Below, piece by piece: positions 243 to 61,244 of a stretch of 64,000 bases of DNA (position 1 is the stretch's first letter; each line of letters opens with the position of its first letter). This DNA is from a bacterium (GTDB lineage: Bacteria > Planctomycetota > UBA1135 > UBA2386). Where the stretch lies: the NCBI GenBank assembly GCA_030432695.1, contig JAUILN010000010.1, forward strand, positions 114,910-178,909, written 5' to 3'. Below the pieces are notes generated by a model. The model did not search any database, was not told the origin of the DNA, and saw nothing but the letters and a program-made list of their open reading frames with translations. The translations under genes were made by a program, and so were the position numbers.

Positions 243-272
243 CAACTCGACCCGGCCGGGTTGTGAACCCCC
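233..272. repeat. REP-like imperfect palindrome (left arm of REPtron); inverted copy of 1282-1320
   Basis: GGGGGGTTAACAACTCGACCCGGCCGGGTTGTGAACCCCC contains the central perfect palindrome CCCGGCCGGG and is ~93% identical to the reverse complement of 1282-1320. Its GTTAAC core supplies stop codons for both convergent genes. Confidence 0.6.
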
Positions 273-1240: not shown

Positions 1241-1281
1241 GCGGTCCGGTGCCCCGGCGCAGCCGCTCGGTCACGGTGCAT

Positions 1282-15397: not shown

Positions 15398-15443
15398 GCC
15401 CCCCGTCGTATCCTCGCGGTCCGTCGAAGGCGACGATGACCCG

Positions 15444-27204: not shown

Positions 27205-27235
27205 GGATCACGGACCGCGGTGGCAGAATCCTCGC

Positions 27236-30200: not shown

Positions 30201-30484
30201 GTCACGATGTGGAACAGCGCGTCGACCTCCCGCGACGCCGGCTGACCCTGGACCTCCGCGCTGCCGACGGGTCACCCACCGGGCTGTGGTCCGGCGCACG
30301 CTACACGGGCGGCGCACACCCCGACATCGGCCCCGACGGCAGGACCTTCGCTCCGCTCCCCGGCTTCGACGGCGTCACCCTCCACCTCCCCCGCCCCGAC
30401 GGCGGCGCCCCCCTCGTCCTCGGCCCCTTCCGGATCCCGGACGGCCAGACCACCCACCACCAGATCGTCCAACTCCCCGACTGA
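27236..30484 (+). CDS. ECF sigma-70 factor fused to a transmembrane segment and large extracytoplasmic beta-sandwich domain (one-component transmembrane sigma factor)
   Basis: Region 2 DLVQTTFLEAIRGADRF. Region 4 HTH YHEVVSLRFVHGLKVVEIARALRRPVGTVQAQLHRGL. TM helix FGKLVMLGLLVLATGVGLWWML. About 850 aa of carboxypeptidase-regulatory-like repeats (FSGRVVAAESGEPLEGVEMW). Single uninterrupted ORF. Confidence 0.8.
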   Translation: MDSRTAANRASMTDSNPLDRRFAAFVRTGDPDHLAAVFDVAAPRLLLVAMHLTRDVAEAEDLVQTTFLEAIRGADRFEAGRSVLPWLVTILSRRAQDARRRRRAAGAADEPAADAAEPLAALAHEETLRAVSQALDGLPAHYHEVVSLRFVHGLKVVEIARALRRPVGTVQAQLHRGLAMLRRALPKSVALSMAALLAGTERGLAAVRTEVLRAAGAGLVASTAFGKLVMLGLLVLATGVGLWWMLPSSAAPSQLQDRSAAAGPIFEESDPREEQRIAVASSGSTAPVHERTGDPEPAADDPNVVRFSGRVVAAESGEPLEGVEMWFRQSWTNQDYTYIFGDGRYWLVEDHFVTGTDGRFAFAARLLHETGYQLNMQADRRIGRSGSITRLTDPLHADFGDVALHRGTRVTGRIRNRNGEGIEAGLHAEAPLPELRGLPGLDGFDLIGIAWSDDDGRIREGHTTAAGTWRLLSTSGEVLEPREIVVREGQDHIDLSVRLATAGPIAELAGRVIDRAGNPVARQAVRAWFPGSEDAFDSDSTDEAGRFVITARREEQLQPFHLGLAKGRIFSRFAGGAPERLWNWNGSEPVLTAQPASTTDLVVVDAAGTPIESFGLWLKASDERRSCYAHFGHHSEGRLSLPGLTDDVLSLTVIPERRDLRFATIHPTAEPQPRDCDVALVRGSPLEIALRSENRPVSGADVAMTRVSPVLRYLSDDSTAPLADARAWFQTGIGSGGQFVFDDRATSDASGRATLFVDSRWEPEEGEFALVIQHLTHESQVVPLSAEQIVTGRVEVELVAGGAILGRVVQPDLAGRFADRVGAGRQRDDGTFSRPEHGGPRNTPAWWAESPIAADGSFEFRGLPPGRWRLSLERHGRNFVHPDMPILDIEAGDTTTAILDPTSLAPATVRLHVTLDGRPAPEGRYASLTLLEDHPLLNLTSLDSEKFDRDGSVCFLDVPAGSYALFSGGVVNGVNDHRYSADVIVVAPGHDVEQRVDLPRRRLTLDLRAADGSPTGLWSGARYTGGAHPDIGPDGRTFAPLPGFDGVTLHLPRPDGGAPLVLGPFRIPDGQTTHHQIVQLPD

Positions 30485-32833: not shown

Positions 32834-32932
32834 GGCCGGAGTCGGAACCACGCGCGGGGCGACGACCGGAAAACGCGGCGTGCGCCGGCCCGCCCCCTGG
32901 ATGCGGACCGCGGCAGGTCTTCAGATCTCTGC

Positions 32933-34003
32933 ATGCTCCGTCGACTCCGCTCCGCTCCCGCCGCCCTCTCCGTGTCCGTGCTGCTGTGCGCGCTGCCGGC
33001 AGTGCCGGGCCAGGACGATCAGGCCCCCGAGGCCGGTGCCGTATCACTCGCGGAGGAGACCGCGCCGAACGACGAGAGCCCTTGGCTCACCCTCCGCGGC
33101 ACCGACGACTCCGCACTCGGCGCCGGCCGCCACGTCGTGTTCGTCACTGGCGACGAGGAGTACCGCTCCGAAGAGGGCATGCCGCAGATCGCCAGGATCC
33201 TGGCCCATCGCCACGGCTTCGACTGCACCGTCCTGTTCGCGGTCGACCCGGAGACCGGCGCCTTCGACCCGAACCACCAGGAGCACATCCCCGGTCTCGA
33301 AGCCCTCGACGACGCCGACCTGATGGTGGTGTTCACGCGCTTCCGGGATCTGCCCGACGAGCAGATGGCGCACTTCGTCGACTACGTCGAATCAGGCCGC
33401 CCCTTGCTCGGCCTGCGCACCGCCACCCACGCCTTCGACATCCGCGAAGACTCCACCTACCGCCGCTGGTCGTGGCGCAATCCGGAATGGGAGGGCGGCT
33501 TCGGCCGGCAGGTCCTCGGCGAGACCTGGATCGCCCATCACGGCGGACACGGCAGCGAGAGCACCCGTGGGCGCATCCCGGAAGATGCCGCCGAGCACGC
33601 CATCCTGCGTGGCATCGACGACGGCGCGGTCTGGGACCCGTCGGACGTGTATCGGGTGCGACTGCCGCTCCCCGAAGGCTGCGAGACCCTGCTGTTCGGC
33701 GAGGTGGTCGCCGGCATGTCGCCCACCGACGACGCGGTCGAAGGCCCCAAGAACGATCCGATGATGCCCGTCGCCTGGGTGCGCGAGCGGACGGTCGAAG
33801 CCGCCGAGGCCCCGCAGCGGGTGTTCGCGACCACCATCGGTGCGTCGCAGGCCTTCGCGCAGGAGGCCAGCCGCCGCCTGGTCGTCAACGCCTGCCTGTG
33901 GGCCATGGGCCTCGACGACCGGATCTCCGCCGACCTCGACGTGCGCCTGGTGGGCGACTACCAGCCGACGCGCTTCGGCTTCCGCCGCCCGAAGAAGGAC
34001 TGA
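32933..34003 (+). CDS. Secreted ThuA-like protein (class I glutamine amidotransferase-like fold)
   Basis: Signal peptide. ThuA-family motifs PVAWVRE...RVFATTIGAS and RRLVVNACLWAMG. Confidence 0.7.
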   Translation: MLRRLRSAPAALSVSVLLCALPAVPGQDDQAPEAGAVSLAEETAPNDESPWLTLRGTDDSALGAGRHVVFVTGDEEYRSEEGMPQIARILAHRHGFDCTVLFAVDPETGAFDPNHQEHIPGLEALDDADLMVVFTRFRDLPDEQMAHFVDYVESGRPLLGLRTATHAFDIREDSTYRRWSWRNPEWEGGFGRQVLGETWIAHHGGHGSESTRGRIPEDAAEHAILRGIDDGAVWDPSDVYRVRLPLPEGCETLLFGEVVAGMSPTDDAVEGPKNDPMMPVAWVRERTVEAAEAPQRVFATTIGASQAFAQEASRRLVVNACLWAMGLDDRISADLDVRLVGDYQPTRFGFRRPKKD

Positions 34004-34016
34004 CCGCGCGCCGGCG

Positions 34017-35894
34017 TCAGTTCCTCTCGAGAACCCAGACCCAGTCGTTCCAGGTCGGGCTCGGCGCCGCCGGGACATTGCGGATGCCGCCACCCCAACG
34101 GGCCTCGGCCGCCCCCTCGAACACCCCGTCCCGCGGATTGAACCAGCGGCCGACGAAGCGCGCGTCACTCGGCTCCTGCCGCAGGTCGATGCGACCGGTC
34201 GTGGTCGCCTCCGGGTAGTAGACCAGATAGACGGATCCCGGCAGCCCGAAGACCTCGGCCTCACCGTAGTTGGAATGGACGGTCTCGTTGGTGACCAGGC
34301 CGTCCGCGGGAAGCATCAGCGGGAACGGGTACCGCTCCAGCAAGCTGCGGGCGTGCCGAGACTGCCGCCACATCGTGTCGCGCGAGCGAAAGTCCTCGAG
34401 GCGGATGTCGCCACCACCGTCCAGGACCGAGTAGTAGCCGCAGTACCACGACAGGTTGCCGCCCGACAACAGCACGTCCCAGAGCACCTTGCGGCGCATC
34501 TCGGCGTGGTTCGAACGCGACAGACCGATCAGCGCCGGACCCTGCTCGTCGACGTCGACGATCGCGTGGCGCCGGAACTGCTCGAACAGCTCGTGCGCCG
34601 CCTCGGTCGCCGGGTTGTAGTCGGCCCGATTGATCTGCAACGAGGCCGAGGTCAGCCACGACGAGTCGTTGGCGTTGGTGAGGATCTGCCGGTAGATGCT
34701 CTGGTCGTCCGGATCGGTGTGCACCGCCATCGGATGCTCGAACGACTGCCAGCGGCGGATCCACTGCGCGATCGCCTCGAGCTCGTTCACGGTGAACTGC
34801 GTGGTCGGCTCGGGCGCGTTCTCCTCGCAGAGGATCCACCGCAGCCCGGGATGGTGACCGAACATCGCCACCATCATCTTGAGGTAGAGCCGCCGCTGGA
34901 CCGACTGGGCTCCACCGAGCCAACTGATGTTCTCCAGCTCCCGCTCCGCCAGCACGAACTCCAGCAGGATGCCGAGCCGCTGCGCGTGCTCGAACACGGT
35001 GTCCCACTGCTCCATCCGGCCGACGTCGTAGTGGGTGACCTTGCCGAACTCGCTGCCGCTCGGATCGACGAAGGGGAACACGTCCTGACCGTCGCCCCCC
35101 AGGTTGTTGGCAAGGAAGTAGACCGAGTTCACCCCCACGTCGTGCAGGTAGTTGAGCGCGCCGACGATGCCCCGGCCGGCGTGAGGGTCCCCTCCGGACC
35201 GCCACTCGGGATCGCCCGGCCGCCAATCGGCCACGTGGTTCGGGTAGTCGTGCAGGAAGGTCTCGCCCAACGGGATGTTGCCCGAGTCGAACGCGCCATC
35301 GAAGCCGCTGTACGCCAGCAGGTTCTCGGGGCTATTGGTCCCGGTCTTCAGGAACCAGGTGCCATCGCGGTGACGTAGGTAGCGAGCGCCGACCGCCTCC
35401 AGCGGGCCATGTCGATGGAAGCCGGTCGCGGCGGGGTCCGGCATCGTCACCTGGAACAGCTGGATCTCGCCGTGCGGAGCGAGCGGCGTGCCCGGAGTCG
35501 CCAGTCCGGCGACGTTGAGGCGCGGCCCCTTCTCGAAGGACACGACCATCGCCCACTGACCGACCTCGTCGGGCGTGAACCGGACCTTCCAGACGCTGCC
35601 GGCATCTCCGCCGAGGCCGTCCGCGGCATAGAACCCGGGCGTGTTCAGGACGCGTCCGCTCGGCGAGACGAACCATCCATGCATCCTGTAGTCGAGGAAC
35701 GGGTGGTCGGGCGACGCGGTGGTCTCCGACAGTCCACCGGGCGCGCGCGCGGCGGTGGAGTAGGCGAATTCGATCGGTTGGAACGCTGCGACGAGTCGAT
35801 GCACGGCGCGACGCGGGCCAGGGTTCACCTGGGCGTCGACGGGGGAGAGGAGCATCGGCACGCCGAAGATCCCGAGGAGGATCGCGGTGCGCAT
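34017..35894 (-). CDS. Secreted putative glycoside hydrolase (DUF5060 N-domain plus DUF4038/GH140-like TIM barrel)
   Basis: Signal peptide MRTAILLGIFGVPMLLSPVDA. Domain architecture resembles GH140 apiosidase-like proteins. The track ORF upstream of 35894 is spurious. Confidence 0.6.
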   Translation of the reverse strand: MRTAILLGIFGVPMLLSPVDAQVNPGPRRAVHRLVAAFQPIEFAYSTAARAPGGLSETTASPDHPFLDYRMHGWFVSPSGRVLNTPGFYAADGLGGDAGSVWKVRFTPDEVGQWAMVVSFEKGPRLNVAGLATPGTPLAPHGEIQLFQVTMPDPAATGFHRHGPLEAVGARYLRHRDGTWFLKTGTNSPENLLAYSGFDGAFDSGNIPLGETFLHDYPNHVADWRPGDPEWRSGGDPHAGRGIVGALNYLHDVGVNSVYFLANNLGGDGQDVFPFVDPSGSEFGKVTHYDVGRMEQWDTVFEHAQRLGILLEFVLAERELENISWLGGAQSVQRRLYLKMMVAMFGHHPGLRWILCEENAPEPTTQFTVNELEAIAQWIRRWQSFEHPMAVHTDPDDQSIYRQILTNANDSSWLTSASLQINRADYNPATEAAHELFEQFRRHAIVDVDEQGPALIGLSRSNHAEMRRKVLWDVLLSGGNLSWYCGYYSVLDGGGDIRLEDFRSRDTMWRQSRHARSLLERYPFPLMLPADGLVTNETVHSNYGEAEVFGLPGSVYLVYYPEATTTGRIDLRQEPSDARFVGRWFNPRDGVFEGAAEARWGGGIRNVPAAPSPTWNDWVWVLERN

Positions 35895-36151
35895 GGAGGG
35901 TAGGGGATGGAGAGTCGTGAGGCGGGGAGAGCCTTGGTGGGTGGAGCCGCCGCTACGATTCCTTTCCACCCACCGGCTATCAGAATCGTCGGAAACTCCG
36001 AGTATGGCAAGCTCGGATCCGAGACGTCCAAAAATTGGCCTGGCCAATATTCGCGACGACACAGAGCCGCATACATCCCCGCAGCCGATAGAAACATCCC
36101 CCAATCAAGTCGTGGGCGGACACACCCCCCGGAGCGCCCGCCCCCGCCGAC

Positions 36152-46146: not shown

Positions 46147-47592
46147 TCAGGCCAGGATGCCGTGGACGACGCGCGCCGGCTCCACTCCGGTCAGCCGCTG
46201 GTCGAGGCCCTGGAACGGGAACACCAGGCGCTCATGGTCGATGCCGAGCTGGTGGAGGATCGTCGCGTGCAGGTCACGGACGTGGACCGGGTCCTTGGCG
46301 ATGTTGTAGGAGAAGTCGTCGGTCTCGCCGTAGTCGATGCCGCCCTGGATGCCGCCGCCGGCCAGCCAGGCGGAGAAGCAACGCGGGTGGTGGTCGCGGC
46401 CGTAGTCGTCGCGCTCGAGTCGACCCTGGCAGTAGACCGTGCGACCGAACTCGCCAGTACAGACGATCAGCGTGTCGTCGAGCAGGCCGCGGCGCTCGAG
46501 GTCGAGGATCAGCGCGGCGGCCGGTTGGTCGACGTCGTAGCACTGGCCGGGTAGCTGCTGCGGCAGGATCGAGTGGTGGTCCCAGCCGCGGTGGAAGATC
46601 TGCACGAAGCGCACGTCGCGCTCGATCAGCCGGCGCGCGAGCAGGCAGTTGCGCGCGAACGAGCCGTTCTTCTCGACCTCGGGTCCGTACAGCTCCTTGA
46701 TGTGCCGCGGCTCGCTGTCGATGTCGGTCACCTCGGGCACCGACATCTGCATCCGGAACGCCATCTCCTGCTGGGCGATGGTCGTCGCGATCTCCGGATC
46801 GCCGATCTCGGCGCGGTGCTTGGCGTTGAGCTCGCCGAGGCTGTCGAGCATGCGACGCCGCACGCCACGGTCGATGCCCGCCGGGTTCGACAGGAACAGC
46901 ACCGGATCGCCGTTGGTCTGGAACGCCACGCCCTGGTGACGCGAGGGCAGGAAGCCGCTGCCCCACAGTCGACTGTAGAGGCCTTGGACGTTGCGCTTGC
47001 CGCCGGTCCAGAACGCCGAGGTCAGCACCACGAAGTCCGGCAGGTCGCGGTTCAACGAGCCGAGGCCGTAGCTCAGCCATGCCCCCATGCTGGCCTTGCC
47101 CGGGATCTCGGCACCGGTGCACAGCGAGGTCTTGCCCGGGTCGTGGTTGATCGCGTTGGTGTGCATCGACTTCACCACGCAGACCCGGTCCTGCACCGCG
47201 GCCAGATGCGGGAACAGCTCGCACCACCACACGCCGTTCTGACCCTTCTGCTCGAAGCGGTACATCGACGGCGCGACCCGCTGCTCGCGGCCGCGCGTCA
47301 TCGCGGTGACCCGCTGCCCCATGCTGACGCTCGGCGGCAACGGCTCCTGGAAGCGCTTGGCGAGGTCGGGTTTGTGGTCGAAGGTGTCGAGCTGGCTCGG
47401 TGCACCGGCCATGAACAGGAAGATGACCCGCTTGGCGCGGGCCCGGTGGGTCCGCGCGTCGCCAGGTCTTTCCTCACGCCGGACACCGGGCAGCAGCGAC
47501 GCCATCGCCGGCAGGCCGAGGCCCACGCCGGCGTTCTGCAGGAAGCGCCGCCGATCCTGCAGCACGTCGAACTCGATGCGTGGATCGCTCAT
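46147..47592 (-). CDS. DUF1501 domain protein (sulfatase-like fold, Tat-secreted)
   Basis: Tat motif RRRFLQNAGVGLGLPAMA. Full-length DUF1501 architecture, typically paired with DUF1549/DUF1553 proteins. Confidence 0.8.
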   Translation of the reverse strand: MSDPRIEFDVLQDRRRFLQNAGVGLGLPAMASLLPGVRREERPGDARTHRARAKRVIFLFMAGAPSQLDTFDHKPDLAKRFQEPLPPSVSMGQRVTAMTRGREQRVAPSMYRFEQKGQNGVWWCELFPHLAAVQDRVCVVKSMHTNAINHDPGKTSLCTGAEIPGKASMGAWLSYGLGSLNRDLPDFVVLTSAFWTGGKRNVQGLYSRLWGSGFLPSRHQGVAFQTNGDPVLFLSNPAGIDRGVRRRMLDSLGELNAKHRAEIGDPEIATTIAQQEMAFRMQMSVPEVTDIDSEPRHIKELYGPEVEKNGSFARNCLLARRLIERDVRFVQIFHRGWDHHSILPQQLPGQCYDVDQPAAALILDLERRGLLDDTLIVCTGEFGRTVYCQGRLERDDYGRDHHPRCFSAWLAGGGIQGGIDYGETDDFSYNIAKDPVHVRDLHATILHQLGIDHERLVFPFQGLDQRLTGVEPARVVHGILA

Positions 47593-47595
47593 GGC

Positions 47596-50019
47596 TCAGT
47601 CCTTGGTCCGGGTGATGTCGAGGTTGTAGATCGTGTTGGCGACCACGGTCAGCGCCGCGTGCACCGCCAACGGTGGGGCGACCGGCGAGCTGGCCGCCTC
47701 GGCATCGAGCGCGAGCAACGCCCGGGCCGCCGCCTCGTCGGCGAGGTAGTGATCCCGCAGATCCTCGAACAGTGCGGTGAGCACCCGCAACTCGTCGCGG
47801 TCGGTAGGCCGACTCGTCACCGTCTCGTAGATCCAGCCGATCCGATACTCGTTGCTCGGCGCGGCGATCTCGGTGCAGGCCCGCGTCGCGACGTGCCGTG
47901 CCGCCTCCACGCACTGCTGCTCGTTGAACTGCAGCAATGCCTGCAACGGCGTGTTGGTCCGCTCGCGCCGCGCCACGCAGGACTCGCGACCCGGCGCGTC
48001 GAAGATCGTCATCTGCGGCGGCGGCAGGCCGCGCTTCCAGAAGGTGTAGACGCTGCGCCGGTAGGCGTCGCGGCCGGGCGAGGTCTGGTGGACCCGCGGG
48101 TAGGAGTCCGGCAGCGCCACCGCCTCCCAGAGTCCGGCCGGCTGCGGCGGCTTGACGCTCGGCCCGTAGAGCCGCTCCTCCAGGAGCCCGCTGGTGGACA
48201 GCATCGAGTCGCGGATCACCTCGGCGTCGAGACGGAACCGCGGGCCGCGGGCCAGCAGGCGGTTCTCCGGGTCGCTCGCGAATGCCTCGGGAGCGGCGCG
48301 CGAGGCCTGCTTGTAGGTGTCCGAGCAGACGATCCGACGCACCAGCTCCTTCACGTCCCACCCCGACCGCACGAACGACCGCGCCAGGAAGTCGAGCAGC
48401 TCCGGATGGCTCGGCACCTCGCCCTGGCTGCCGAGGTCCTCGGAGGTCTTCACCAGACCCACGCCGAAGAACTGCTGCCAGGTCCGGTTGACCATCACGC
48501 GCGCGGTGAGCGGGTGGTCGGGCCGGACGGTCCAACGGGCGAGGTCCATGCGCGTCGGCAGGTCGTCCCCCGTCTCGAGCGGCGGTAGAAACGCCGGCGT
48601 GCCGCGCGGGACCTCGGCACCCGGCCGGTCGTACTGGCCTCGGATCAACACGTGCGCCGGCCGCGGCTCGGCGCGCTCGCGCATCACCATCGCGCCAGGG
48701 ATCGTGGTACGGAACTGGTTGAACTCGCGACGCAGCGCCCCGAGCCGCTGTTCGGCCGCCTTGCGCGCGGCCTCGTGCGTGGCCTTCGCATCGCCCTCGG
48801 CCGACGACTCCGCGGCCCTGGCCTCGGCGACCGCCCGCTCGGCCGACGCGATCTGCTGCTCCAGCTCGGTGCGTCGCGCCGCCTGCTCCTCGCTCGGGAA
48901 CTCCAGGTAGGGCGGCTGCAGGCCACGCACGAAGTCGGGCCCGCTGCGTCCGCCGGTCTCCGGCGCGCCGTCGAGGTTGTTGAAGAACGCCGACAGCGAG
49001 AAGAAGTCGGCCTGGGTGACCGGGTCGAACTTGTGGTCGTGGCAGACCGCGCAGCCGAGCGTCAGGCCGAGGAACGCGGTGCCGTAGGCGCTGGTCCGGT
49101 CGATGACGTTCCGACTCAGGCTCTCCTCGGGCAGCATCGTGCCGACGTCGATGATCAGGTGCAGGCGGTGGAAGCCCGACGCGATCAACTGGTCGGTGGT
49201 CGGCTCGGGATACAGATCGCCGGCGATCTGGTCGGTCGCGAAGCGGTCGTACGGCAGGTTGTCGTTGAAGGCCCGGATCACCCAATCGCGGTACGGGCTC
49301 GAGTCGCGGAAGTGGTCGTGGTGGATGCCGTTGGTGTCCGCGAAGCGCACCAGGTCGAGCCAGTAGCGCGCCATGTGCTCGCCGTAGCGCGGGCTGGCAA
49401 GGAGCCGGTCGACGAGGCGCTGCCAGGCCAGCGGCGAGTCGTCGGCGAGGAAGCGGGTGACCTCCAGCGAGGTCGGTGGCAGGCCGGTGAGGTCGAGCGT
49501 GACCCGGCGGATCAGCGTGCCTTTGTCGGCCTCGGGAGCAGGCTCGAGTCCCTCGGCGCGCAGCCGGCGCAGCACGTAGCCGTCGAGGTCCCGCGGCGCG
49601 TCGGCGGCGACGCTCGGCGGCACGAACGACCAGTGGGTCTGGTACTCGGCGCCGCTCTCGATCCAGCGCCGGATCAACGCGCGCTGGGCTTCGTCGAACG
49701 GCTGCTCGTGCGAATCCGCGGGCGGCATGCGGTCGCCCTCGTCGGCCTCGGCGATGCGGAACCAGAGTTCGCTGGCCGCGAGATCACCGGGCACCACCGC
49801 CGCCACGCCGTCGCGTGGCGTCAACGCCCCGTGCTCGCCGTCGGGCACGTCGAGCCGCAGGTCGGCCTTGCGGTCCTCGGCGTCGGGGCCGTGGCAGGCG
49901 AAGCACCGATCGGCCAGGAGCGGCCGGATGTCGCGGTTGAACGACGGGGCAGGCGCGCCGTCCTGGCTCGCGACAGCGCAGCACAGGATCGGCAGGAACA
50001 GGAGCGCGAGACGGGTCAC
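47596..50019 (-). CDS. Planctomycete-type cytochrome c domain protein (PSCyt + DUF1549 + DUF1553)
   Basis: Signal peptide. N-terminal heme motif CFACHGPD. DUF1549 and DUF1553 regions. 3 bp downstream of the DUF1501 gene, the classic pair. Confidence 0.8.
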   Translation of the reverse strand: MTRLALLFLPILCCAVASQDGAPAPSFNRDIRPLLADRCFACHGPDAEDRKADLRLDVPDGEHGALTPRDGVAAVVPGDLAASELWFRIAEADEGDRMPPADSHEQPFDEAQRALIRRWIESGAEYQTHWSFVPPSVAADAPRDLDGYVLRRLRAEGLEPAPEADKGTLIRRVTLDLTGLPPTSLEVTRFLADDSPLAWQRLVDRLLASPRYGEHMARYWLDLVRFADTNGIHHDHFRDSSPYRDWVIRAFNDNLPYDRFATDQIAGDLYPEPTTDQLIASGFHRLHLIIDVGTMLPEESLSRNVIDRTSAYGTAFLGLTLGCAVCHDHKFDPVTQADFFSLSAFFNNLDGAPETGGRSGPDFVRGLQPPYLEFPSEEQAARRTELEQQIASAERAVAEARAAESSAEGDAKATHEAARKAAEQRLGALRREFNQFRTTIPGAMVMRERAEPRPAHVLIRGQYDRPGAEVPRGTPAFLPPLETGDDLPTRMDLARWTVRPDHPLTARVMVNRTWQQFFGVGLVKTSEDLGSQGEVPSHPELLDFLARSFVRSGWDVKELVRRIVCSDTYKQASRAAPEAFASDPENRLLARGPRFRLDAEVIRDSMLSTSGLLEERLYGPSVKPPQPAGLWEAVALPDSYPRVHQTSPGRDAYRRSVYTFWKRGLPPPQMTIFDAPGRESCVARRERTNTPLQALLQFNEQQCVEAARHVATRACTEIAAPSNEYRIGWIYETVTSRPTDRDELRVLTALFEDLRDHYLADEAAARALLALDAEAASSPVAPPLAVHAALTVVANTIYNLDITRTKD

Positions 50020-50068
50020 GCTCCGGAGTGTACGGGGCTGGGTCGGTCGCGGTCGAGGTGCCTTCGGA

Positions 50069-51052
50069 TCATCGCAGCGTGCCCGCCGGAGCGTCGAGCA
50101 GCAGCGAGTTGGAGACCGAGTTGCCGAAGTCGTCGAAGCGGTCGAAGGTCCAGACGACCTCCTTGCTGGCCGGATCGACCTCGATCAGCAGGGGCTGACC
50201 CGGACCCGCGTGGCAGTTGCCGAGCACGTAGTGGCCGTTCGGCAGGACCTCGAGCGTCGTGACCCAGGCCAGTCGGATCCCCTCCAGATCGTCCTGGTGC
50301 AGCGCCCAGACGATCTCCTGCTCCGGGGTGACCTCGAGCACCGAGTGGCCGTTGCCGGTGGCGACCAGGGTGTTGCCCGAGGCGAGCCGCAGCGCCGCGA
50401 AGACCTGGTTGCCGAACGCCTCGGGACCGTGGCCGGGCTTGGGTTCGTGGTCGAAGAGCGGCACTGCGAACGACCACACCACCTCGCCACTGTCGCCGTC
50501 GTACTCGCGCACCACCCCGTCGCCCTCGTGACAGACGAGGTAGTTGCCGCCGGGCAGCTTGCGCGCGAGGCGGGTATCGCGGTGCGGGTGCGGGTGCTCG
50601 ACCACCAGCTCCACCTCCTTCAGGACCTTCCCCTCGCGATCGATCTCGAGGATCCGCGCCGGCCCGCTCTCGACCACCATCAGCCGGCCGTCGCCCAGCG
50701 GCTGGAAGGCATGGACCTCGACCTTGCGACCCTCGTTGCCGTTCCGCTGCGCGGCGTCGTAGCTCCAGACCACCGCTTTGGTCTCGGGATCGAGCTCGCA
50801 GATCCGCCGCATCCGCTCCTGCACCAGGATGTGGCCGTTCGGCAGGCGGTGCAGATCGTGGATGCCGTCCCAAGGCATCTCCCATTCGATCGTGCCGTCG
50901 ACGGCGACCACCGCGAGGCGGCCCTTGCCCTGCAGCAACACGCGGTGACCGGGGGCGGGAGGCGTTTCGGGCGCGGGGTCCTGTGCACGGATCGCGGCCA
51001 GGGGGAGGGCCACGACGAGCGCGGCAGAGAGCAGATCGCGGAGCTGGAGCAT
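50069..51052 (-). CDS. Secreted PQQ-like beta-propeller repeat protein
   Basis: Signal peptide MLQLRDLLSAALVVALPLAAIRA. Repeated blade motifs KAVVWSYD, EVVWSFA, EIVWALH, EVVWTFD. The track ORF upstream of 51052 is spurious. Confidence 0.7.
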   Translation of the reverse strand: MLQLRDLLSAALVVALPLAAIRAQDPAPETPPAPGHRVLLQGKGRLAVVAVDGTIEWEMPWDGIHDLHRLPNGHILVQERMRRICELDPETKAVVWSYDAAQRNGNEGRKVEVHAFQPLGDGRLMVVESGPARILEIDREGKVLKEVELVVEHPHPHRDTRLARKLPGGNYLVCHEGDGVVREYDGDSGEVVWSFAVPLFDHEPKPGHGPEAFGNQVFAALRLASGNTLVATGNGHSVLEVTPEQEIVWALHQDDLEGIRLAWVTTLEVLPNGHYVLGNCHAGPGQPLLIEVDPASKEVVWTFDRFDDFGNSVSNSLLLDAPAGTLR

Positions 51053-51149
51053 CGTCGCGACGCATCGTAGCCCCCCGAACACGCCGGACCCGACTTCCGA
51101 CTCGTCGATCCTCCCGCGCTGGGCCAGCGGGTACAGTCCCCGGCCGACC

Positions 51150-54100
51150 ATGATGCGACCCCTCTCTCCCCTGGTTCTCCTCTGCTCGCTCGGCGCGGCG
51201 GCCCATCCGGTGGCGCTGCCCGCCCAGGGCGGTGGCTCGACGGCTCGATCCCTGTTCGACGGCGAGACCCTCGCCGGCTGGCGCGGCGACCAACGCCTGT
51301 GGACGGTCGAGGACGGCGCCATCAAGGGTTCGACCCTCGACCACAAGATCGACTCCAACACCTTCCTGATCTGGGAGGGCGGCGAGGTCGAGGACTTCGA
51401 ACTGCGCTTCGAGGCGAAGTTCACCCCGGCGAACAACTCGGGCGTGCAGTATCGGTCGCGACCGCTCGACTCGAACCCGTACGGCGTGGCCGGCAACCAG
51501 TTCGACCTGCACCCGAGTCCCAACTACCTCGCGATGCTCTACGGCGAGCGCGAGCGTGGGATCGTCGCACAGCGCGGCCAGCAGGTGGTGGTCGGCGAGA
51601 ACGGCAAGTCGAAGGTGGTGGGCGCGACCAATCCGACCACGCCGATCGACGTGTCGCAGTGGCACGACTACCGCATCGTGGCGCGCGGCAACCACCTGAT
51701 CCACGAGGTCGACGGGGTGGTCGCGGTGGACATCACCGACAACGATCCGAAGGCGCGGCGCAGTGGCGTGATCGCCTTGCAGCTCCATCAGGGCGCACCG
51801 ATGAACGTCTGGTTCCGCAACCTGGAGCTGACGGCGTTCGCGCCCGACGGCGCCGAGGTGAGCGCCGCACCGGCAGCCGCCGGGACGCCGGACGAACCGG
51901 AGACGGCACCCCACTGGATCTGGAGTGGCGCCAGTGACGGCGAGCGGGCGTCGTTCCGCCACGCGTTCGAGGTCTCCGGCGACGTCGCCCTCGCCTCGCT
52001 GCACACGGCGGCCGACAACCACTGCGAAGTCTGGCTCAACGGCAAGCGGGTGCTGAAGAACGACGACTGGGCCGGGCCGAGCCGGGCCGACGTGAAGGAC
52101 GCACTGCGCGCCGGCCGCAACCAGCTCGCGGTCCACGCCTGGAACGACGGCGGACCGGCGGCCCTGGCGCTGCGCCTGTGGATCCGCGGCAGCGACGAGC
52201 AGGACACGGTGGTCGTCAGCGACGGTTCGTGGCGGGCGATCGCCGCTCAGGGGGCCGACGGCTGGCGAGACGGCTCGTTCGACGACTCGTCGTGGGGCAC
52301 GGCGACCGACCTCGGCGAGGTCGGCAGCTCCGGTCTGCCGTGGTCGGGCTCGGTGGGAGCCACCTCGTTCGGCGCTCGGCCGACACCGCCGAAGCCGCAG
52401 ACGGTGCGCGACGCCGAGATCCAGACGCTGCCGGGCTTCGTCGCCGAACTGGTCTACGAGGTGCCGCGCGACAGCCAGGGCTCGTGGGTCAGCCTCGGCA
52501 CGCTGCCCGACGGCAGCCTGATCGCCTCCGACCAGGCCGACAAGGGGCTGTTCCGGATCCGGCCGGCCGCGGTGGGCGTGCCCGGCGCGACCACCAGCGT
52601 GACGCGGATCCCGGTAGAGATCGGCGGCGCGCAGGGGCTCCTGTGGGCGTTCGACAGCCTGTACGTGATGGTCAACGGCCGCGGCTCGGGGCTCTACCGG
52701 ATCACCGACCAGGACGGCGACGGCGAACTCGACGACGTGAAGCTGCTGCGCAAGCTCGAGGGCGCGGGTGAGCACGGGCCGCACGCGGTCCGCCTGTCGC
52801 CCGACGGCGAGGCCCTGGTGGTCTGCGCCGGCAACCACACCAACCCGCCGGAGTTCGACGGCTCGCGGATCCCGACCAACTGGGGCGAAGACCTGCTGCT
52901 GCCGCGGCAGTGGGACGCACGCGGCCACGCCCGCGGGCGGATGGCGCCCGGTGGCTGGATCGCGCGGGTGTCTCCCGACGGCGAACACTGGGAGATGCTG
53001 AGCGTCGGCTACCGGAACGAGTACGACTTCGCGTTCGACCGGAGCGGCGAGATGTTCGCCTACGACGCCGACATGGAGTGGGACATGGGCATGCCCTGGT
53101 ACCGCCCCACCCGGATCTCCCACGCGACGAGCGGCAGCGAATTCGGCTGGCGCTCGGGAACCGGCAAGTGGCCGACCGACTACCCGGATTCGCTGCCGCC
53201 GCTGCTGGAGATCGGTCCCGGCTCGCCGACCGGCCTGACCTTCGGCTACGGCGCACGGTTCCCGGCCCGCTACGAGCAGGCGCTCTACGCGTGCGACTGG
53301 ACCTTCGGCACGATCTGGGCCGTCCACCTCGAGCCCGACGGCGCGACGTACCGGGCGACCAGCGAGGAGTTCGCCAGCGGCAAGCCGCTCGCGCTCACCG
53401 ACGTGGTGGTCGGCGCGGACGGCGCGATGTACCTCACGGTCGGCGGACGCGGTACGCAGTCGAAGCTGTACCGCATCCGCCACGAGTCGGCGCAGGCGGG
53501 TCCGGCCGGGCCGGCACTCGCGCTGACCACGCCCGAGGCCACGCTGCGCAAGCAGCTCGAGGCGTTCCACGGCAAGGCAGACCCCAAGGCGGTCGACACG
53601 GCCTGGCCGGCGCTCGGCCACCAGGACCGCTTCGTCGCCTACGCGGCCCGGATCGCACTCGAGTCCCAGACGGTCGCCGAGTGGCGGGAGCGGGCGATCG
53701 CCGAGACCGACCCGGCCATCGCCAGCAACGCGATGCTGGCCCTGGCCCGCCAGGGCTCCGGTGCCGAGGACCGCGACGCCGTGCTCCGCAAGCTGATGGG
53801 CCTGCGCGGTCCGTTCGGTGGCGAGTTCGGGGTGATCTCGCGGCTGCGCACCGCCGGGGTCGCGATGGCCCGCCACGGCATGCCGGACGAGCAACTCCGC
53901 CAGCAGATGATCGAGCTGTTGAGCAACAACCTCCGGCCGCGCAACAAGCGCATCTTCGTCGAGATGGTCAAGCTGCTGGCCTACCTCGGCGCGCCAACGG
54001 TGGTCGAGCAGGCGATGCCGATGCTGGTCGCGGCCGAGCCGTCGCCGGCCCCGGCGTGGTCGGAGCTGATCCAGCGGAACGACGGCTACGGCGGCCCGAT

Positions 54101-54887
54101 CGCCAAGATGCTCGCCGACATGCCGCCGCTCGAAGGCATCGACCTGGCCTTCGCACTGCGCAACGTGCGCTACGGCTGGACCCTGCCGCTGCGGCGCCAG
54201 TACTTCGAGTTCATCAACCGCGCCGCGAAGCACCCCGGCGGCGCCAGCTACGCCGGCTTCCTGACCAACTGCCGCAACGAGGCGCTGGAGAACTGCTCGT
54301 TCTTCGAGCGCGCCGCCTGCGCGGACCTGACCGGTGAGGAGCTGGCCGCGAAGCCCGACTTCGAGATCACGCCGCCGCAGGGACCGGGCCGGGCCTGGAC
54401 GATCGACGCCGCGGTGGAGGCCATCGAGGCCGGTCAGGGGCCACGCGACTTCGCCGCGGGTCGCAACCTGTTCCACGCGGTCGCCTGCGTGGCCTGCCAC
54501 CGCTTCGACGGCGCGGGTGGCGACATCGGCCCGGACCTGACCACGGTCGCCAACAAGTTCTCCACCCGCGACCTGCTGACCTCGATCGTGGAGCCGAGCC
54601 AGGTGATCTCCGACCAGTACGGCTCGTCGATCGTCACCCGCAGGAACGGCACCGAGGTGTTCGGCCGCGTCAACGAGAAGGACGGCGGCGACCTCGAGGT
54701 CTACCCGATGGACCCGAAGGCCGACCCGGTGCTGATCCCCGCCGCCGACGTCGCCGCGGTGAAGGCCTCACCGATCTCGCAGATGCCGCAGGGCCTGATC
54801 AACTCGCTGAACGCCGACGAGCTCCGCGACCTGATCGCCTACCTGATGTCGCGCGGCGACGAGAACGCCCCGGCCTACCGCCGCTGA
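51150..54887 (+). CDS. Giant Pirellula/Verrucomicrobium-type putative membrane-bound dehydrogenase: DUF1080 (3-keto-disaccharide hydrolase-like) + PA14/F5-8-like + glucose/sorbosone dehydrogenase-like beta-propeller + HEAT repeats + C-terminal cytochrome c
   Basis: Signal peptide. DUF1080 N-domain. HEAT-like region. C-terminal CVACH heme motif within a TIGR02603-like block (PDLTTVANKFSTRDLLTSIVEPS...ISQMPQGLINSLNADELRDLIAYL). Confidence 0.8.
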   Translation: MMRPLSPLVLLCSLGAAAHPVALPAQGGGSTARSLFDGETLAGWRGDQRLWTVEDGAIKGSTLDHKIDSNTFLIWEGGEVEDFELRFEAKFTPANNSGVQYRSRPLDSNPYGVAGNQFDLHPSPNYLAMLYGERERGIVAQRGQQVVVGENGKSKVVGATNPTTPIDVSQWHDYRIVARGNHLIHEVDGVVAVDITDNDPKARRSGVIALQLHQGAPMNVWFRNLELTAFAPDGAEVSAAPAAAGTPDEPETAPHWIWSGASDGERASFRHAFEVSGDVALASLHTAADNHCEVWLNGKRVLKNDDWAGPSRADVKDALRAGRNQLAVHAWNDGGPAALALRLWIRGSDEQDTVVVSDGSWRAIAAQGADGWRDGSFDDSSWGTATDLGEVGSSGLPWSGSVGATSFGARPTPPKPQTVRDAEIQTLPGFVAELVYEVPRDSQGSWVSLGTLPDGSLIASDQADKGLFRIRPAAVGVPGATTSVTRIPVEIGGAQGLLWAFDSLYVMVNGRGSGLYRITDQDGDGELDDVKLLRKLEGAGEHGPHAVRLSPDGEALVVCAGNHTNPPEFDGSRIPTNWGEDLLLPRQWDARGHARGRMAPGGWIARVSPDGEHWEMLSVGYRNEYDFAFDRSGEMFAYDADMEWDMGMPWYRPTRISHATSGSEFGWRSGTGKWPTDYPDSLPPLLEIGPGSPTGLTFGYGARFPARYEQALYACDWTFGTIWAVHLEPDGATYRATSEEFASGKPLALTDVVVGADGAMYLTVGGRGTQSKLYRIRHESAQAGPAGPALALTTPEATLRKQLEAFHGKADPKAVDTAWPALGHQDRFVAYAARIALESQTVAEWRERAIAETDPAIASNAMLALARQGSGAEDRDAVLRKLMGLRGPFGGEFGVISRLRTAGVAMARHGMPDEQLRQQMIELLSNNLRPRNKRIFVEMVKLLAYLGAPTVVEQAMPMLVAAEPSPAPAWSELIQRNDGYGGPIAKMLADMPPLEGIDLAFALRNVRYGWTLPLRRQYFEFINRAAKHPGGASYAGFLTNCRNEALENCSFFERAACADLTGEELAAKPDFEITPPQGPGRAWTIDAAVEAIEAGQGPRDFAAGRNLFHAVACVACHRFDGAGGDIGPDLTTVANKFSTRDLLTSIVEPSQVISDQYGSSIVTRRNGTEVFGRVNEKDGGDLEVYPMDPKADPVLIPAADVAAVKASPISQMPQGLINSLNADELRDLIAYLMSRGDENAPAYRR

Positions 54888-54894
54888 CGTGCCA

Positions 54895-54936
54895 GAGGGG
54901 TGAACATCTCGGCCCGGCCGAGAGGTTCACCCCCTC
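54895..54936. terminator. Near-perfect palindrome / bidirectional terminator between convergent genes
   Basis: gaggggtgaacatctcggcc|cggccgagaggttcaccccctc: ~19-bp stem. Confidence 0.45.
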
Positions 54937-54949
54937 GCAACGGACGAGG

Positions 54950-56290
54950 TCAGCCCCCTCGGGGTGAGAGCAGCGGGCGCAGCGCGATGCGCTTGAAGTG
55001 GATCTCGGCGCCCTCGGACTGGAAGCAGAGCGGGCCCGCGACGTCGTCGCACGACCAGGCCTCGTTCACGACCTCGCCGTTGACCCGCAGGCTGACCCAA
55101 CCGTCGTCGCAGACGATCTCGTAGCGGTTCCACTCGCCGAGCGGCTTCTCGTTGCCGTGGGTCTTCTTGGTGTTGCGACCCTTGGTCCGCGACGCGTCGA
55201 CCTGCATGCCGAACTGGTCGATGTTCCAGAAGTCGCCGGCCTGGCCCGACTGGAGCTGCGCCTCGATGCTCTTCGGCCAGACCTTGTGCGGCCCGACCTG
55301 TCGCAGCAGCACGCCGCTGTTGCCAGGCCCCTTCGCGGGGTCGAAGCGCCACTCGACCTCGAGCACGAAGTCCTCGAACGAATCCTTCGAGTAGAGGTAG
55401 CCGACCGGCTGGCCCTTGCAGACCAGCACCCCGTCCCGCACCGTCCAGATCGCGGCCAGCGGCGCATCGGTGTCGCCGCGCAGGTGGTATCCGAAAGCCG
55501 CGAGGTTGGCGTGGTTCTCGCTCGTGCCGTCGAACAGCACCACCTCCTCGCCGCGCCGCGCTTCCTCGGGCACCAGCTCGCGGATCTTGATGTTGCGGAA
55601 CGCGACCTCGTCACCGTGGTCCTGCAGGCAGATCAGACCGCGCGGATGGACGCCGAAGCCCTCCCACTTGGCGAACTTGCTGGCCGCGACGCGCTCCTTC
55701 CAGTCGTCCGAACCGAACTCGGCCTCGACGACCTTCGTGCCGTTCAGCCAATGCTCGACGCGGGCACCGTCGAGGACGATCCGCGTCTCGTTCCACTCCC
55801 CGGCCGGCTTCGGCTCCGCGCCCTCCGCGGCGTAGAGCGCGTACAGCGCCCCGACCCGGTGCTTCGGGTCGGCGTTGCCCGGATCGTCGAACACCTGGTA
55901 CTCCGGCCCGGTGTGGTAGCTCGGCCCGTCGGTCTCGACCACGCGGTACATGATCCCGCTGTTGCCCCCCGCCGCGATCCGCCACTCCAGCTGCAACTCG
56001 AAGTTGCGGTAGTCGCGTCGGGTGACCAGATCACCGCCACCCCCGCCGGCCCCGTGCCGCAGTTCGCCGGCGACCACCCGCCAGCCCCGATCGGGCATCT
56101 CCTCTCGCCGGTAGCCGCGCCAGGCATCGGTCGAGCGGCCGTCGAACAACACGTGCCAGCCCTGCGCGATCTCCTCCTGCGTCAGGCGGAAGGTCGGCTC
56201 GGGACTCCTGGTGGTCACGACCTCTTGCGCGGACGCGGTGAGGAGCAGCGACGCGGCGGCAACCGCGGGGAACAGGGATCGGACGGGCAT
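54950..56290 (-). CDS. Secreted protein with two DUF1080 (3-keto-disaccharide hydrolase / LamG-like) domains
   Basis: Signal peptide MPVRSLFPAVAAASLLLTASA. Two tandem DUF1080 domains (the WHVLFDG...FRNIKIREL pattern twice). Confidence 0.75.
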   Translation of the reverse strand: MPVRSLFPAVAAASLLLTASAQEVVTTRSPEPTFRLTQEEIAQGWHVLFDGRSTDAWRGYRREEMPDRGWRVVAGELRHGAGGGGGDLVTRRDYRNFELQLEWRIAAGGNSGIMYRVVETDGPSYHTGPEYQVFDDPGNADPKHRVGALYALYAAEGAEPKPAGEWNETRIVLDGARVEHWLNGTKVVEAEFGSDDWKERVAASKFAKWEGFGVHPRGLICLQDHGDEVAFRNIKIRELVPEEARRGEEVVLFDGTSENHANLAAFGYHLRGDTDAPLAAIWTVRDGVLVCKGQPVGYLYSKDSFEDFVLEVEWRFDPAKGPGNSGVLLRQVGPHKVWPKSIEAQLQSGQAGDFWNIDQFGMQVDASRTKGRNTKKTHGNEKPLGEWNRYEIVCDDGWVSLRVNGEVVNEAWSCDDVAGPLCFQSEGAEIHFKRIALRPLLSPRGG

Positions 56291-56342
56291 GCTGCGGGTC
56301 TCCAGCGGATCGGGGGAACGAGGGGGTATCTTGACCCTCGTG

Positions 56343-56987
56343 CCCGCTCCGACGCCACCGCCACCCCGCCTCGCCTGGCTGCCGAACGCCATCTCGGTGC
56401 TGCGCCTCGTGCTGGTTCCGGTGTGGTTCCTCGCGGCGGAGCGCACGCTCGTGCCCTCGAGCGATCCCGAGGGGTCCCTCGCCGGCCGGGACCTGACTCC
56501 GCTGCTGATCTGGCTCGCCATTGGCATCAGCGACGTGCTGGACGGTCACCTCGCCCGCCGTTGGCACGTCGAGAGCCGGGCCGGCGCGACCATCGACGCG
56601 GTCGCCGACAAGGCCGCCCAGATCGTCGCCTTCACCTGGCTCGCGCTGCGCGCGCCGGGCCACGCGTGGATGACCGCCGTCCCGCTGTGGTTCCTGCTGC
56701 TCCTGATCGCCCGCGACGCCGTGCTGCTGACCGGCTCGCTGTACGTCCGCGCCCGCCGGGGCGGTGTCGCGGTGGTCCACCGGTGGCACGGCAAGCTCGC
56801 CAGCCTGTTGCTGTTCGCGGTCGTCCCGGTCGCCACCAGCCTCGATGTGCCGTCGGCCGAGCTGGCCCTGTTCGCGCCACTCGCCCTGCTGGTGACCCTG
56901 AGCACCGTCGACTACTTCCGCGACGGACTCCGGCAGCTCCCGCGCGGCAGGCACCCGCCCCAGGGCACCCCGGAGAGCCCGCGGTAA
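56343..56987 (+). CDS. CDP-alcohol phosphatidyltransferase (PgsA-like)
   Basis: LPNAISVLRLVLVP N-terminus. Motif ISDVLDGHLAR...GATIDAVADK (D-x2-DG-x2-AR...G-x3-D-x3-D). Start uncertain (ATG 56289, TTG 56331 or GTG 56343); 56289 would collide with the divergent gene's start. Confidence 0.7.
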   Translation, partial: PAPTPPPPRLAWLPNAISVLRLVLVPVWFLAAERTLVPSSDPEGSLAGRDLTPLLIWLAIGISDVLDGHLARRWHVESRAGATIDAVADKAAQIVAFTWLALRAPGHAWMTAVPLWFLLLLIARDAVLLTGSLYVRARRGGVAVVHRWHGKLASLLLFAVVPVATSLDVPSAELALFAPLALLVTLSTVDYFRDGLRQLPRGRHPPQGTPESPR

Positions 56988-60110: not shown

Positions 60111-61244
60111 ATGCGCACAGAGACGCTCGTCCTCGCCGCCGCCGCACTCGCGCTCGCCGGCTGCCAGTCCACCGACACCTCCCTTCCCCAGGTCCGCACG
60201 ATGTCCTTCGGCAAGACCGCGGCGGGCGAGCCCGCCACCCTGTTCGAACTCCGGAGCCCGAGCGGTGCGATCGCGCGGCTGACCGACTACGGCGCCACGC
60301 TGGTCGAGATGTGGGCGCCCGACCGCGACGGCAAGCTCGCCGACGTGATCCTCGGCTTCGACGACGTCTCGGGCTACCAATCGGACCGCAACCAGTACTT
60401 CGGCTGCACCACCGGCCGGGTCGCCAACCGCATCGACGGGGCGATGTTCGAGCTCGACGGCGAGATCTACCGGCTCGAGGCCAACGACAACGGCAAGAAC
60501 ACCCTGCACGGCGGCGGGGACCGAGCACTGAGCCGGGTGATGTGGCAGGCCGAGCCGTTCGAGGAGACCGACCGGATGGGTGTTCGCTTCCGCTACACCA
60601 GTCCGGACGGCGAGGAGGGCTTCCCGGGCAATCTGCAGATGGAGGTCGTCTACACGCTCGACCTGCGCGGCGACCTCACGGTCGACTACACGGCGACCAC
60701 CGACCAGGACACGCCGGTCAACCTGACCAACCACGCGTACTGGAACCTGTCGGGCCACGGCTCCCCGACCGTGCTCGACCATGTGCTGACCCTCGAGGCC
60801 TCGCACTACACGCCGACCAACGACGATCTGATCCCGATCGGGTCGGTCGCACCCGTGGCGGGGACGGCACTGGACTTCCGGACCCCGCACGTGATCGGCG
60901 AGCGCATCGCACCCCTGATCGAGAGCCCGGCGCTGGGCTACGACCACAACTTCGTGCTCGACAGCCCCGGCGGCTCGATGGCCAAGGCCGCCGAGCTGTA
61001 CGACCCCGCCTCGGGCCGGGTCCTCGGGGTCTGGACGACCGAGCCCGGTATCCAGTTCTACAGCGGCAACTTCCTGTTCGGGCAGATCGGCAAGGGTGGC
61101 CGCGAATACGCCAACCGCAGCGCCTGCTGCCTGGAGACCCAGCACTTCCCGGACTCGGTCAACCAGCCGGCGTTCCCGGACACCGTGCTGCGGCCGGGCA
61201 AGACCTACCGGCACACCACGGTGCACCGGTTCGGGGTCCGCTGA
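60111..61244 (+). CDS. galM: Aldose 1-epimerase (galactose mutarotase), lipoprotein
   Basis: Lipobox LALAGC. Mutarotase motifs TNHAYWNL and HGG. Full-length family match. Confidence 0.9.
   Translation: MRTETLVLAAAALALAGCQSTDTSLPQVRTMSFGKTAAGEPATLFELRSPSGAIARLTDYGATLVEMWAPDRDGKLADVILGFDDVSGYQSDRNQYFGCTTGRVANRIDGAMFELDGEIYRLEANDNGKNTLHGGGDRALSRVMWQAEPFEETDRMGVRFRYTSPDGEEGFPGNLQMEVVYTLDLRGDLTVDYTATTDQDTPVNLTNHAYWNLSGHGSPTVLDHVLTLEASHYTPTNDDLIPIGSVAPVAGTALDFRTPHVIGERIAPLIESPALGYDHNFVLDSPGGSMAKAAELYDPASGRVLGVWTTEPGIQFYSGNFLFGQIGKGGREYANRSACCLETQHFPDSVNQPAFPDTVLRPGKTYRHTTVHRFGVR

Follow-up and report, generated by a model that had tools for sequence, protein, structure and literature searches.

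A DUF1080-fused beta-propeller cytochrome c protein of a planctomycete as one member of a large PVC family

Six-bladed beta-propellers that use pyrroloquinoline quinone (PQQ) are known from bacteria, where about 22,000 have been listed, many of them predicted to be lanthanide-dependent; they are partnered with or fused to cytochromes c, and fungal AA12 quinohemoproteins provide a further precedent (bioRxiv 10.64898/2026.07.10.737718). DUF1080 enzymes act as 3-keto-glycoside lyases or hydratases, and in BT2157 the conserved channel is lined by N134, E164, Q166, Y190, K245, Q273, and H275 (bioRxiv 10.1101/2024.03.25.586180), while the DUF1080 enzymes of Caulobacter work with the periplasmic dehydrogenase LacABC (PMC9007349). 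In this report, we focus on two genes, hereafter A and B, within a 64,000-nucleotide stretch (the window) of a contig from a planctomycete (JAUILN010000010.1, positions 114,910 to 178,909), in which gene A encodes a secreted protein that joins a DUF1080 domain, a propeller, and a cytochrome c domain, and gene B a secreted protein in which DUF1080 occurs twice.

The closest described relatives of gene A are proteins of the Planctomycetota-Verrucomicrobiota-Chlamydiota (PVC) group that match the NCBIfam models TIGR02604 ('putative membrane-bound dehydrogenase domain') and TIGR02603 ('putative heme-binding domain'). One of them, Lac161_ORF7, combines TIGR02604, HEAT, and cytochrome c regions, and after production in E. 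coli it is reported to liberate glucose from lactose, with a Km of 1.8 mM in a coupled glucose-oxidase assay (PMC5342196). On the strength of that result, papers on planctomycete genomes count family members as putative 'beta-propeller glycoside hydrolases', with 18-20 copies per genome, and also report 17-20 DUF1080 proteins in each genome (PMC7397252, PMC5352709). A preliminary description of the locus had proposed that genes A and B, together with galM and two glycoside hydrolase (GH) genes, form a periplasmic 3-keto-glycoside pathway module. Here, we describe the architecture, fold relationship, residue conservation, family size, and fusion pattern of gene A, as well as its lack of conserved synteny. 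Gene A belongs to an already known, very large, uncharacterised PVC family, in which it is an ordinary member, and we put at about 60% the probability that it is a periplasmic carbohydrate-directed oxidoreductase passing electrons to its own c-type heme.

Architecture of gene A and its propeller

The window has a G+C content of about 70%, which makes raw lists of open reading frames (ORFs) noisy, and the real genes were picked by filtering the window ORFs on G+C content at third codon positions (GC3). This filter keeps 51150-54887 on the plus strand (GC3 0.94) and 54950-56545 on the minus strand (GC3 0.92), of which the first is gene A, organised as follows.

51150..54887, plus strand: gene A, 1245 aa, with signal peptide, DUF1080, CBM67-like domain, six-bladed propeller, HEAT-like solenoid, and cytochrome c
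51243..51830, plus strand: DUF1080 (PF06439) of a non-canonical subtype, residues 32-227
51891..52352, plus strand: CBM67-like or rhamnosidase-N-like lectin jelly roll, residues ~248-401
52422..53519, plus strand: six-bladed beta-propeller, PQQ sugar dehydrogenase-like, residues ~425-790
53532..54344, plus strand: all-alpha HEAT-like solenoid, residues ~795-1065
54447..54851, plus strand: class-I-type cytochrome c domain, residues 1100-1234, with CxxCH at 54486-54500

An AlphaFold2 (AF2) model of residues 405-1245, built from an alignment of 55 homologs, has a pLDDT (predicted local distance difference test score) of 91 and a pTM (predicted template-modelling score) of 0.81. Its top Foldseek match is 2ism (E 1.7e-11, TM 0.70 on the target, 21% identity), followed by soluble glucose dehydrogenase (sGDH), 3das, 3a9g, 7cgz, and 2g8s; the five best structural matches of the propeller are all sugar dehydrogenases, and its modelled fold is closest to the PQQ-dependent six-bladed members of that group. 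When the propeller alignment was compared by hhalign with a small alignment of aldose sugar dehydrogenases (Asd) and sGDH rebuilt from PDB alignments, the probability was 96.7% (E 4e-10). The same comparison against YliI alone gave a probability of just 4%, and a large-database search with YliI as the query returned only near-identical enterobacterial proteins.

In sGDH, His144 serves as the catalytic base, the R228-N229 pair polarises C5 of PQQ, and R406 and R408 hold the PQQ carboxylates. In gene A, the invariant pair R622-N623 falls on the RN of 'GHRNPQG'/'GIRNPQG', which is the R228-N229 pair of sGDH, and the 'GxNYGW' motif is present as 'GSEFGW'. Additionally, the segment 'GEH542GPH545AVRLSPDG' fits the 'LHSGGRIAFGPDG' of 2ism ungapped when anchored on PDG, with H542 at the His position. 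About 20 polar residues of the propeller are invariant across the 55 sequences, and the acidic cluster D639/D641/E643/D645 is likewise invariant. The preliminary description had named missing catalytic residues as an outcome that would refute its reading; what is found is an sGDH/AA12-like propeller that conserves the Arg-Asn pair and has a His that is a candidate for the catalytic base.

The C-terminal domain is a cytochrome c. TIGR02603 matches residues 1100-1234 with 98.2 bits (cut-off 68.15), and PF00034 matches 1102-1142 (E 7.8e-8). The heme motif reads C1113-V-A-C1116-H1117, and C1113, C1116, H1117, and M1212 are invariant in the 55 sequences, M1212 being the likely sixth heme ligand. 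Residues 1099-1231 are also matched by Kustd1711, a diheme cytochrome of Kuenenia (PDB 7zs0), in its C-terminal domain, with an E-value of 1e-6 for the sequence alone and 3.5e-26 with a profile. Between propeller and heme lies the solenoid, represented by helices 391-657 of the AF2 model; profile matches to HEAT structures and designed HEAT-like alphaRep proteins (E 4e-8 to 1e-2) extend over residues ~770-885, and Pfam HEAT is not matched in gene A itself.

At the N-terminus, the DUF1080 domain scores above the gathering score of PF06439 (E 3.4e-39, 135 bits). It is followed by a lectin-like module that matches the PDB lectin 6kbj (E 1.6e-14) and residues 138-292 of Streptomyces avermitilis SaRha78A (E 1.1e-9) in a sequence/profile search of PDB, and the rhamnosidase-type NCBIfam model NF041573 spans residues 238-399. 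In the SaRha78A alignment, D289-N290 of gene A fall on D179-N180, the Ca- and rhamnose-binding pair of that module. The order of DUF1080, propeller, HEAT repeats, and CxxCH domain given in the preliminary description is borne out by the hidden Markov models (HMMs), the profile search, and the AF2 model, and the CBM67-like domain at ~248-401 is a component that it had overlooked.

Read from the ATG at 51150, the translation of gene A opens with a signal peptide of the Sec type (MMRPLSPLVLLCSLGAAAHP...). In a public annotation, the identical protein (P0001) starts at a GTG 20 codons downstream, and the signal peptide is thereby lost. In the public call of the upstream minus-strand propeller gene, the ATG overlaps that of gene A by 2 nt (51149-51152). 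Signal peptides in the translations suggest that the true starts are 51082 on the minus strand for the upstream gene and 51150 on the plus strand for gene A.

A large family and the proposed function

The full architecture of gene A occurs in more than 260 proteins with 40-67% identity from Planctomycetota and Verrucomicrobiota, which carry names such as 'family 16 glycoside hydrolase', 'cytochrome c', and 'putative heme-binding domain-containing protein'. A search with the propeller only yields 3,827 clusters at 50% identity with E <=1e-3, including 1,291 with E <=1e-30. An architecture census of the 144 best representatives, made with HMMs cut from the gene A family alignment, shows an unchanging propeller-HEAT-heme core and a modular N-terminus: about 40% have no N-terminal module or another one, about 25% the CBM67-like domain alone, about 22% DUF1080 plus the CBM67-like domain, and about 6% DUF1080 alone, and a single case has DUF1080 at the C-terminus. 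By Pfam, the 'other' modules are ThuA, NPCBM, and alpha/beta hydrolases of the BD-FAE or 'putative esterase' type (in homologs including P0033, P0370, P0349, P0246, P0308, and P0332), and P0349 also has a PF07995 match below the gathering score (E 8e-5). In homolog P0101, a cupredoxin stands where the heme domain should be, and this replacement of one small redox carrier by another argues that the C-terminus transfers electrons. Furthermore, the accessory modules are uniformly carbohydrate-related, which argues for sugars or glycans as the targets of the core. The family is probably one of modular carbohydrate-directed redox proteins, and the fusions seen among relatives lend good support to the electron-transfer-coupled, carbohydrate-directed function suggested for gene A in the preliminary description.

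For gene A itself, we infer the substrate, cofactor, oxidised position, and direction of electron flow as follows. The protein, a member of the TIGR02604/TIGR02603 family of PVC bacteria, would be exported by the Sec route and reside in the periplasm, where the non-canonical DUF1080 and the CBM67-like lectin may bind or position a glycan or sugar. The six-bladed propeller would then oxidise a sugar hydroxyl by means of an organic cofactor, probably PQQ or a similar compound, with a metal presumably held by the invariant acidic cluster; by analogy with sGDH, Asd, and AA12, C1 would be the default position of oxidation. Electrons would pass from the propeller to the protein's own C-terminal His/Met c-type heme and onward to the respiratory chain, and the HEAT solenoid may act as a scaffold between propeller and heme.

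Several results weigh against this proposal. TIGR02604 matches residues 494-762 (E 3e-20, profile positions 74-336 of 367) with 72.9 bits, below the cut-off of 122.2; homology of the propeller to this family is nonetheless clear, though the curated naming threshold is missed. The Pfam GSDH family (PF07995) is not matched by gene A even at E up to 10, a range in which Pfam returns only a weak DUF7133 match on the propeller, and the propeller HMM finds only noise among PDB sequences; none of the sequence-based methods ties the propeller directly to a protein of solved structure. At the His motif, hhalign introduces a 3-residue gap, so that either H542 or H545, both invariant, may be in register with sGDH His144. 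The RxR motif of sGDH and Asd (R406/R408; 'RIRDV' in YliI) is not kept, 'LTDVV' being aligned instead, and the 'EHGP..DE' Ca/PQQ segment ('EHGPRGGDE') is replaced by D639-A-D641-M-E643-W-D645 and a 9-residue insert. The invariant R652, R655, R668, and R767 might substitute for RxR as putative ligands of the PQQ carboxylates. Finally, the sole biochemistry in the family, that of Lac161_ORF7, is the reported lactose hydrolysis by a protein made in E. coli, an organism that is not known to make PQQ, and the result misfits a PQQ-dependent redox mechanism.

Gene B and the neighbourhood of gene A

Gene B lies downstream of gene A on the opposite strand, with the following features at and beyond the end of gene A.

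54897..54933, no strand assigned: GC-rich inverted repeat between the stop codons of genes A and B, GGGGTGAACATCTCGGCC / GGCCGAGAGGTTCACCCC, read directly from the sequence
54950..56290, minus strand: gene B, 446 aa, secreted, with two DUF1080 domains
54971..55543, minus strand: gene B DUF1080 domain 2, divergent by motif comparison
55580..56161, minus strand: gene B DUF1080 domain 1, canonical, with GGNSG, PEYQ, ALY, SKF, and LQDHG all present

The best start of gene B is MPVRSLFPAVAAASLL... at 56290, the same end coordinate as in the preliminary description, and it yields a signal peptide visible in the translation (MPVRSLFPAVAAASLLLTASA). The two genes are convergent, with stop codons 62 bp apart, and the hairpin between them has an 18-bp stem with one mismatch and no T-run after it; it is probably a bidirectional terminator in this high-GC genome. 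PF06439 matches gene B twice (E 3.2e-83, 279 bits), in agreement with the earlier reading of a convergent, secreted double-DUF1080 protein, and every DUF1080 region of genes A and B passes this family model. Against PDB, gene B matches 4jqt (E 1.8e-47) and 8tda, 3osd, and 8rr2 (~1e-32).

With the BT2157 residues placed indirectly, by spacing on 4hxc and by alignments, domain 1 of gene B holds every mapped BT2157-type active-site residue. Domain 2 keeps the N and E-A-Q, has Trp for Tyr and Q-S-E for Q-D-H, and does not have the SKF lysine. The DUF1080 domain of gene A, for which the N-terminal domain of 4jqt is the closest PDB match, retains N96, Q117, Y131, and Q211-x-H213 at BT2157 channel positions; Gly115 replaces Glu164, no equivalent of the SKF lysine (Lys245) is present, and D119, H121, and E133 are conserved residues of its own. 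This domain may have a catalytic mode of its own, or may serve for binding.

Conservation of the A/B pairing was assessed at 80 related loci from GTDB species representatives, in which DUF1080 genes were sought by tblastn and with a DUF1080 HMM. Only about 6 of the 80 loci have a separate DUF1080 gene no more than 10 kb from the gene A relative, roughly the number that chance would give with ~20 DUF1080 genes per genome. The closest ortholog, at 67% identity, has wholly different neighbours (thiolase, beta-lactamase-like, kinase, and FG-GAP genes), and no DUF1080 gene adjoins it. Given the convergent orientation, the hairpin, the scarcity of adjacency, and the different neighbours of the ortholog, gene B, an ordinary secreted DUF1080 enzyme transcribed on its own, is independent of gene A and lies beside it by chance, not as a conserved partner. 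The synteny comparison recommended in the preliminary description thus finds the pairing unconserved, and the proposed pathway module of A and B, two convergent transcription units whose adjacency is absent at about 74 of the 80 loci and in the ortholog, is not sustained. What links DUF1080 to the dehydrogenase-like core is gene fusion rather than gene neighbourhood.

The carbohydrate genes that had been counted as nearby module members lie among unrelated genes. galM (60111-61244) is 5 kb from gene A, beyond gene B, a CDP-alcohol phosphatidyltransferase gene, and a transglutaminase-like gene; the GH140-like gene (DUF5060 + Collagen_bind_2; 34017-36104, minus strand) is 15 kb away, and the GH29 gene (13523-15577) is 36 kb away. 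Sigma factor, Band-7, two-component, FHA-trypsin, and FG-GAP genes lie between the GH genes and gene A, and we reject a cluster of GH29, GH140-like, and galM with gene A on distance and on the unrelated genes in between. Among the scanned ORFs of the whole 64-kb window, Pfam found no GFO/IDH/MocA protein, no flavin adenine dinucleotide (FAD)/GMC 3-dehydrogenase, and no xylose-isomerase-like TIM-barrel lyase.

On the other side, gene A faces a run of minus-strand genes extending over 46147-51082.

50069-51082, minus strand: BamB-like PQQ_2 propeller with its own signal peptide, divergent from gene A across a 67-bp gap
47596-50019, minus strand: PSCyt1-PSCyt2-PSD1 protein
46147-47592, minus strand: DUF1501 protein

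PSCyt-type genes occur within 6 kb of 27 of 79 gene A relatives, and DUF1501 genes at 14 of the 79 loci; in L027, L033, L051, and L060, they are contiguous with the gene A relative and on the same strand. PSCyt density within 1 kb is about three times that at 2-10 kb, based on small numbers. As this enrichment is weak and such genes are very abundant in PVC genomes, PSCyt/DUF1501 proteins were not adopted as specific partners.

Three further observations concern the rest of the window. A ThuA-like gene (32834-34003, plus strand) adjoins the GH140-like gene and is convergent with it; ThuA is also found fused to relatives of gene A. The 1106-aa ORF at 27164-30484 (plus strand) has ECF-type (extracytoplasmic function) sigma-70 regions 2 and 4 at its N-terminus, with CarboxypepD_reg-like repeats among the ~900 residues after them; it is either a sigma-factor fusion of unusual length or a pair of genes read as a single ORF. 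Near the window start, 239-1270 (minus strand) gives a weak IS200-like Y1 transposase match (E 1e-4), just under the gathering score.

Alternative readings and comparison with known systems

Among the alternatives, the one that survives best, unlikely as we consider it, holds that the propeller oxidises a glycoside at C3 (or C2) and the fused DUF1080 cleaves or hydrates the resulting keto-glycoside, with enzymes of the gene B type possibly acting in trans, which would amount to a respiration-coupled 'oxidative glycosidase'. It draws on the known chemistry of DUF1080 enzymes, which are 3-keto-glycoside lyases or hydratases working with periplasmic dehydrogenases, on the fusion of DUF1080 to the core in ~30% of the closest representative clusters (once C-terminally), on the intact BT2157-type site in domain 1 of gene B, and on the reported release of glucose from lactose by a family member. 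ThuA, another recurrent fusion partner, is genetically tied to 3-ketotrehalose formation. However, the characterised propellers of sGDH, Asd, and AA12 oxidise C1, not C3, to our knowledge; the DUF1080 of gene A has Gly for Glu164 and no Lys245 equivalent; the majority of the family has no DUF1080 at all; A/B adjacency is unconserved; and the window scans found no TIM-barrel lyase or GFO/IDH/MocA partner. A more specific version, to which we assign a lower probability still, is that the DUF1080- and ThuA-fused members, including gene A, would be self-contained respiratory oxidative glycosidases, in which a PQQ-type propeller would generate a keto-glycoside, electrons would leave through the protein's own heme c, and DUF1080 would eliminate or hydrate the product. 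If this were true, oxidative glycosidases would represent a periplasmic, energy-conserving, non-Koshland mode of glycan breakdown, multiplied into dozens of paralogs in PVC bacteria.

It is improbable, in our estimate, that the substrate is not a carbohydrate or that electrons flow inward, with the protein acting as a reductase or sensor and the N-terminal beta-sandwiches as generic binding or anchoring domains. This possibility arises since the substrate of gene A is assigned by inference, its active site is unlike that of sGDH at the PQQ and Ca positions, and the recurring PSCyt and DUF1501 neighbours are genes with no assigned function, but all of the identified accessory modules (CBM67-like, NPCBM, DUF1080, ThuA, and esterases) are carbohydrate-related, and the five best structural matches are sugar dehydrogenases without exception. 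Least probable, and only a slim prospect, is a redox-independent glycoside hydrolase (a 'beta-propeller-type beta-galactosidase') with an accessory or regulatory heme, for which purified Lac161_ORF7 released glucose from lactose with a Km of 1.8 mM (PMC5342196) and which later planctomycete genome papers follow in treating the family as putative glycoside hydrolases, but the assay is single, unreplicated, and read out through coupled glucose oxidase, and the invariant CxxCH..M and the cupredoxin swap are hard to explain without electron transfer.

The preferred reading of gene A as a cytochrome-linked sugar oxidoreductase matters chiefly for the family, which is very large, has no established function, and is named by annotation pipelines as 'family 16 glycoside hydrolase' or 'cytochrome c'. 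If its members are such oxidoreductases, a sizeable 'hidden' part of PVC carbohydrate metabolism would move from hydrolysis to respiration-linked oxidation, and the quinohemoprotein/AA12 concept would reach bacteria. The gene A locus is one representative and introduces no new principle.

Compared with the DUF1080 lyases and hydratases (BT2157, 8tda/3osd), domain 1 of gene B is alike (E ~1e-32), with the mapped N, E-x-Q, Y, K, and Q-x-H kept, whereas the DUF1080 of gene A belongs to another subtype, like domain 1 of 4jqt and lacking the Glu164 and Lys245 equivalents. The BT2157-type proteins and the DUF1080 proteins of the periplasmic lactose route with LacABC are periplasmic and act downstream of a sugar dehydrogenase, but their partners, a GFO/IDH/MocA or FAD dehydrogenase and a TIM-barrel lyase, were not found in the window. 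The PQQ-dependent six-bladed dehydrogenases compared here include sGDH (1c9u), Asd/YliI (2g8s, 2ism, 7cdy), and the fungal AA12 pyranose dehydrogenases (6jt5, 6i1t). Gene A differs from this group in its replaced sGDH RxR and EHGP..DE residues, its missing Pfam GSDH match, its C-terminal c-type heme in place of an N-terminal cytochrome b, and its inserted HEAT solenoid. The CBM67 of SaRha78A (3w5m) and the 6kbj lectin resemble the gene A module over its whole length, with the D-N pair aligned, but SaRha78A carries it on a GH78 catalytic domain and gene A on a dehydrogenase-like core. The closest counterparts are the TIGR02604/TIGR02603 proteins of PVC bacteria, including Lac161_ORF7 (AGW45552), which share the propeller-HEAT-cytochrome c core and come from the same phyla; relative to them, gene A scores below the TIGR02604 cut-off and adds an N-terminal DUF1080 and a CBM67-like module.

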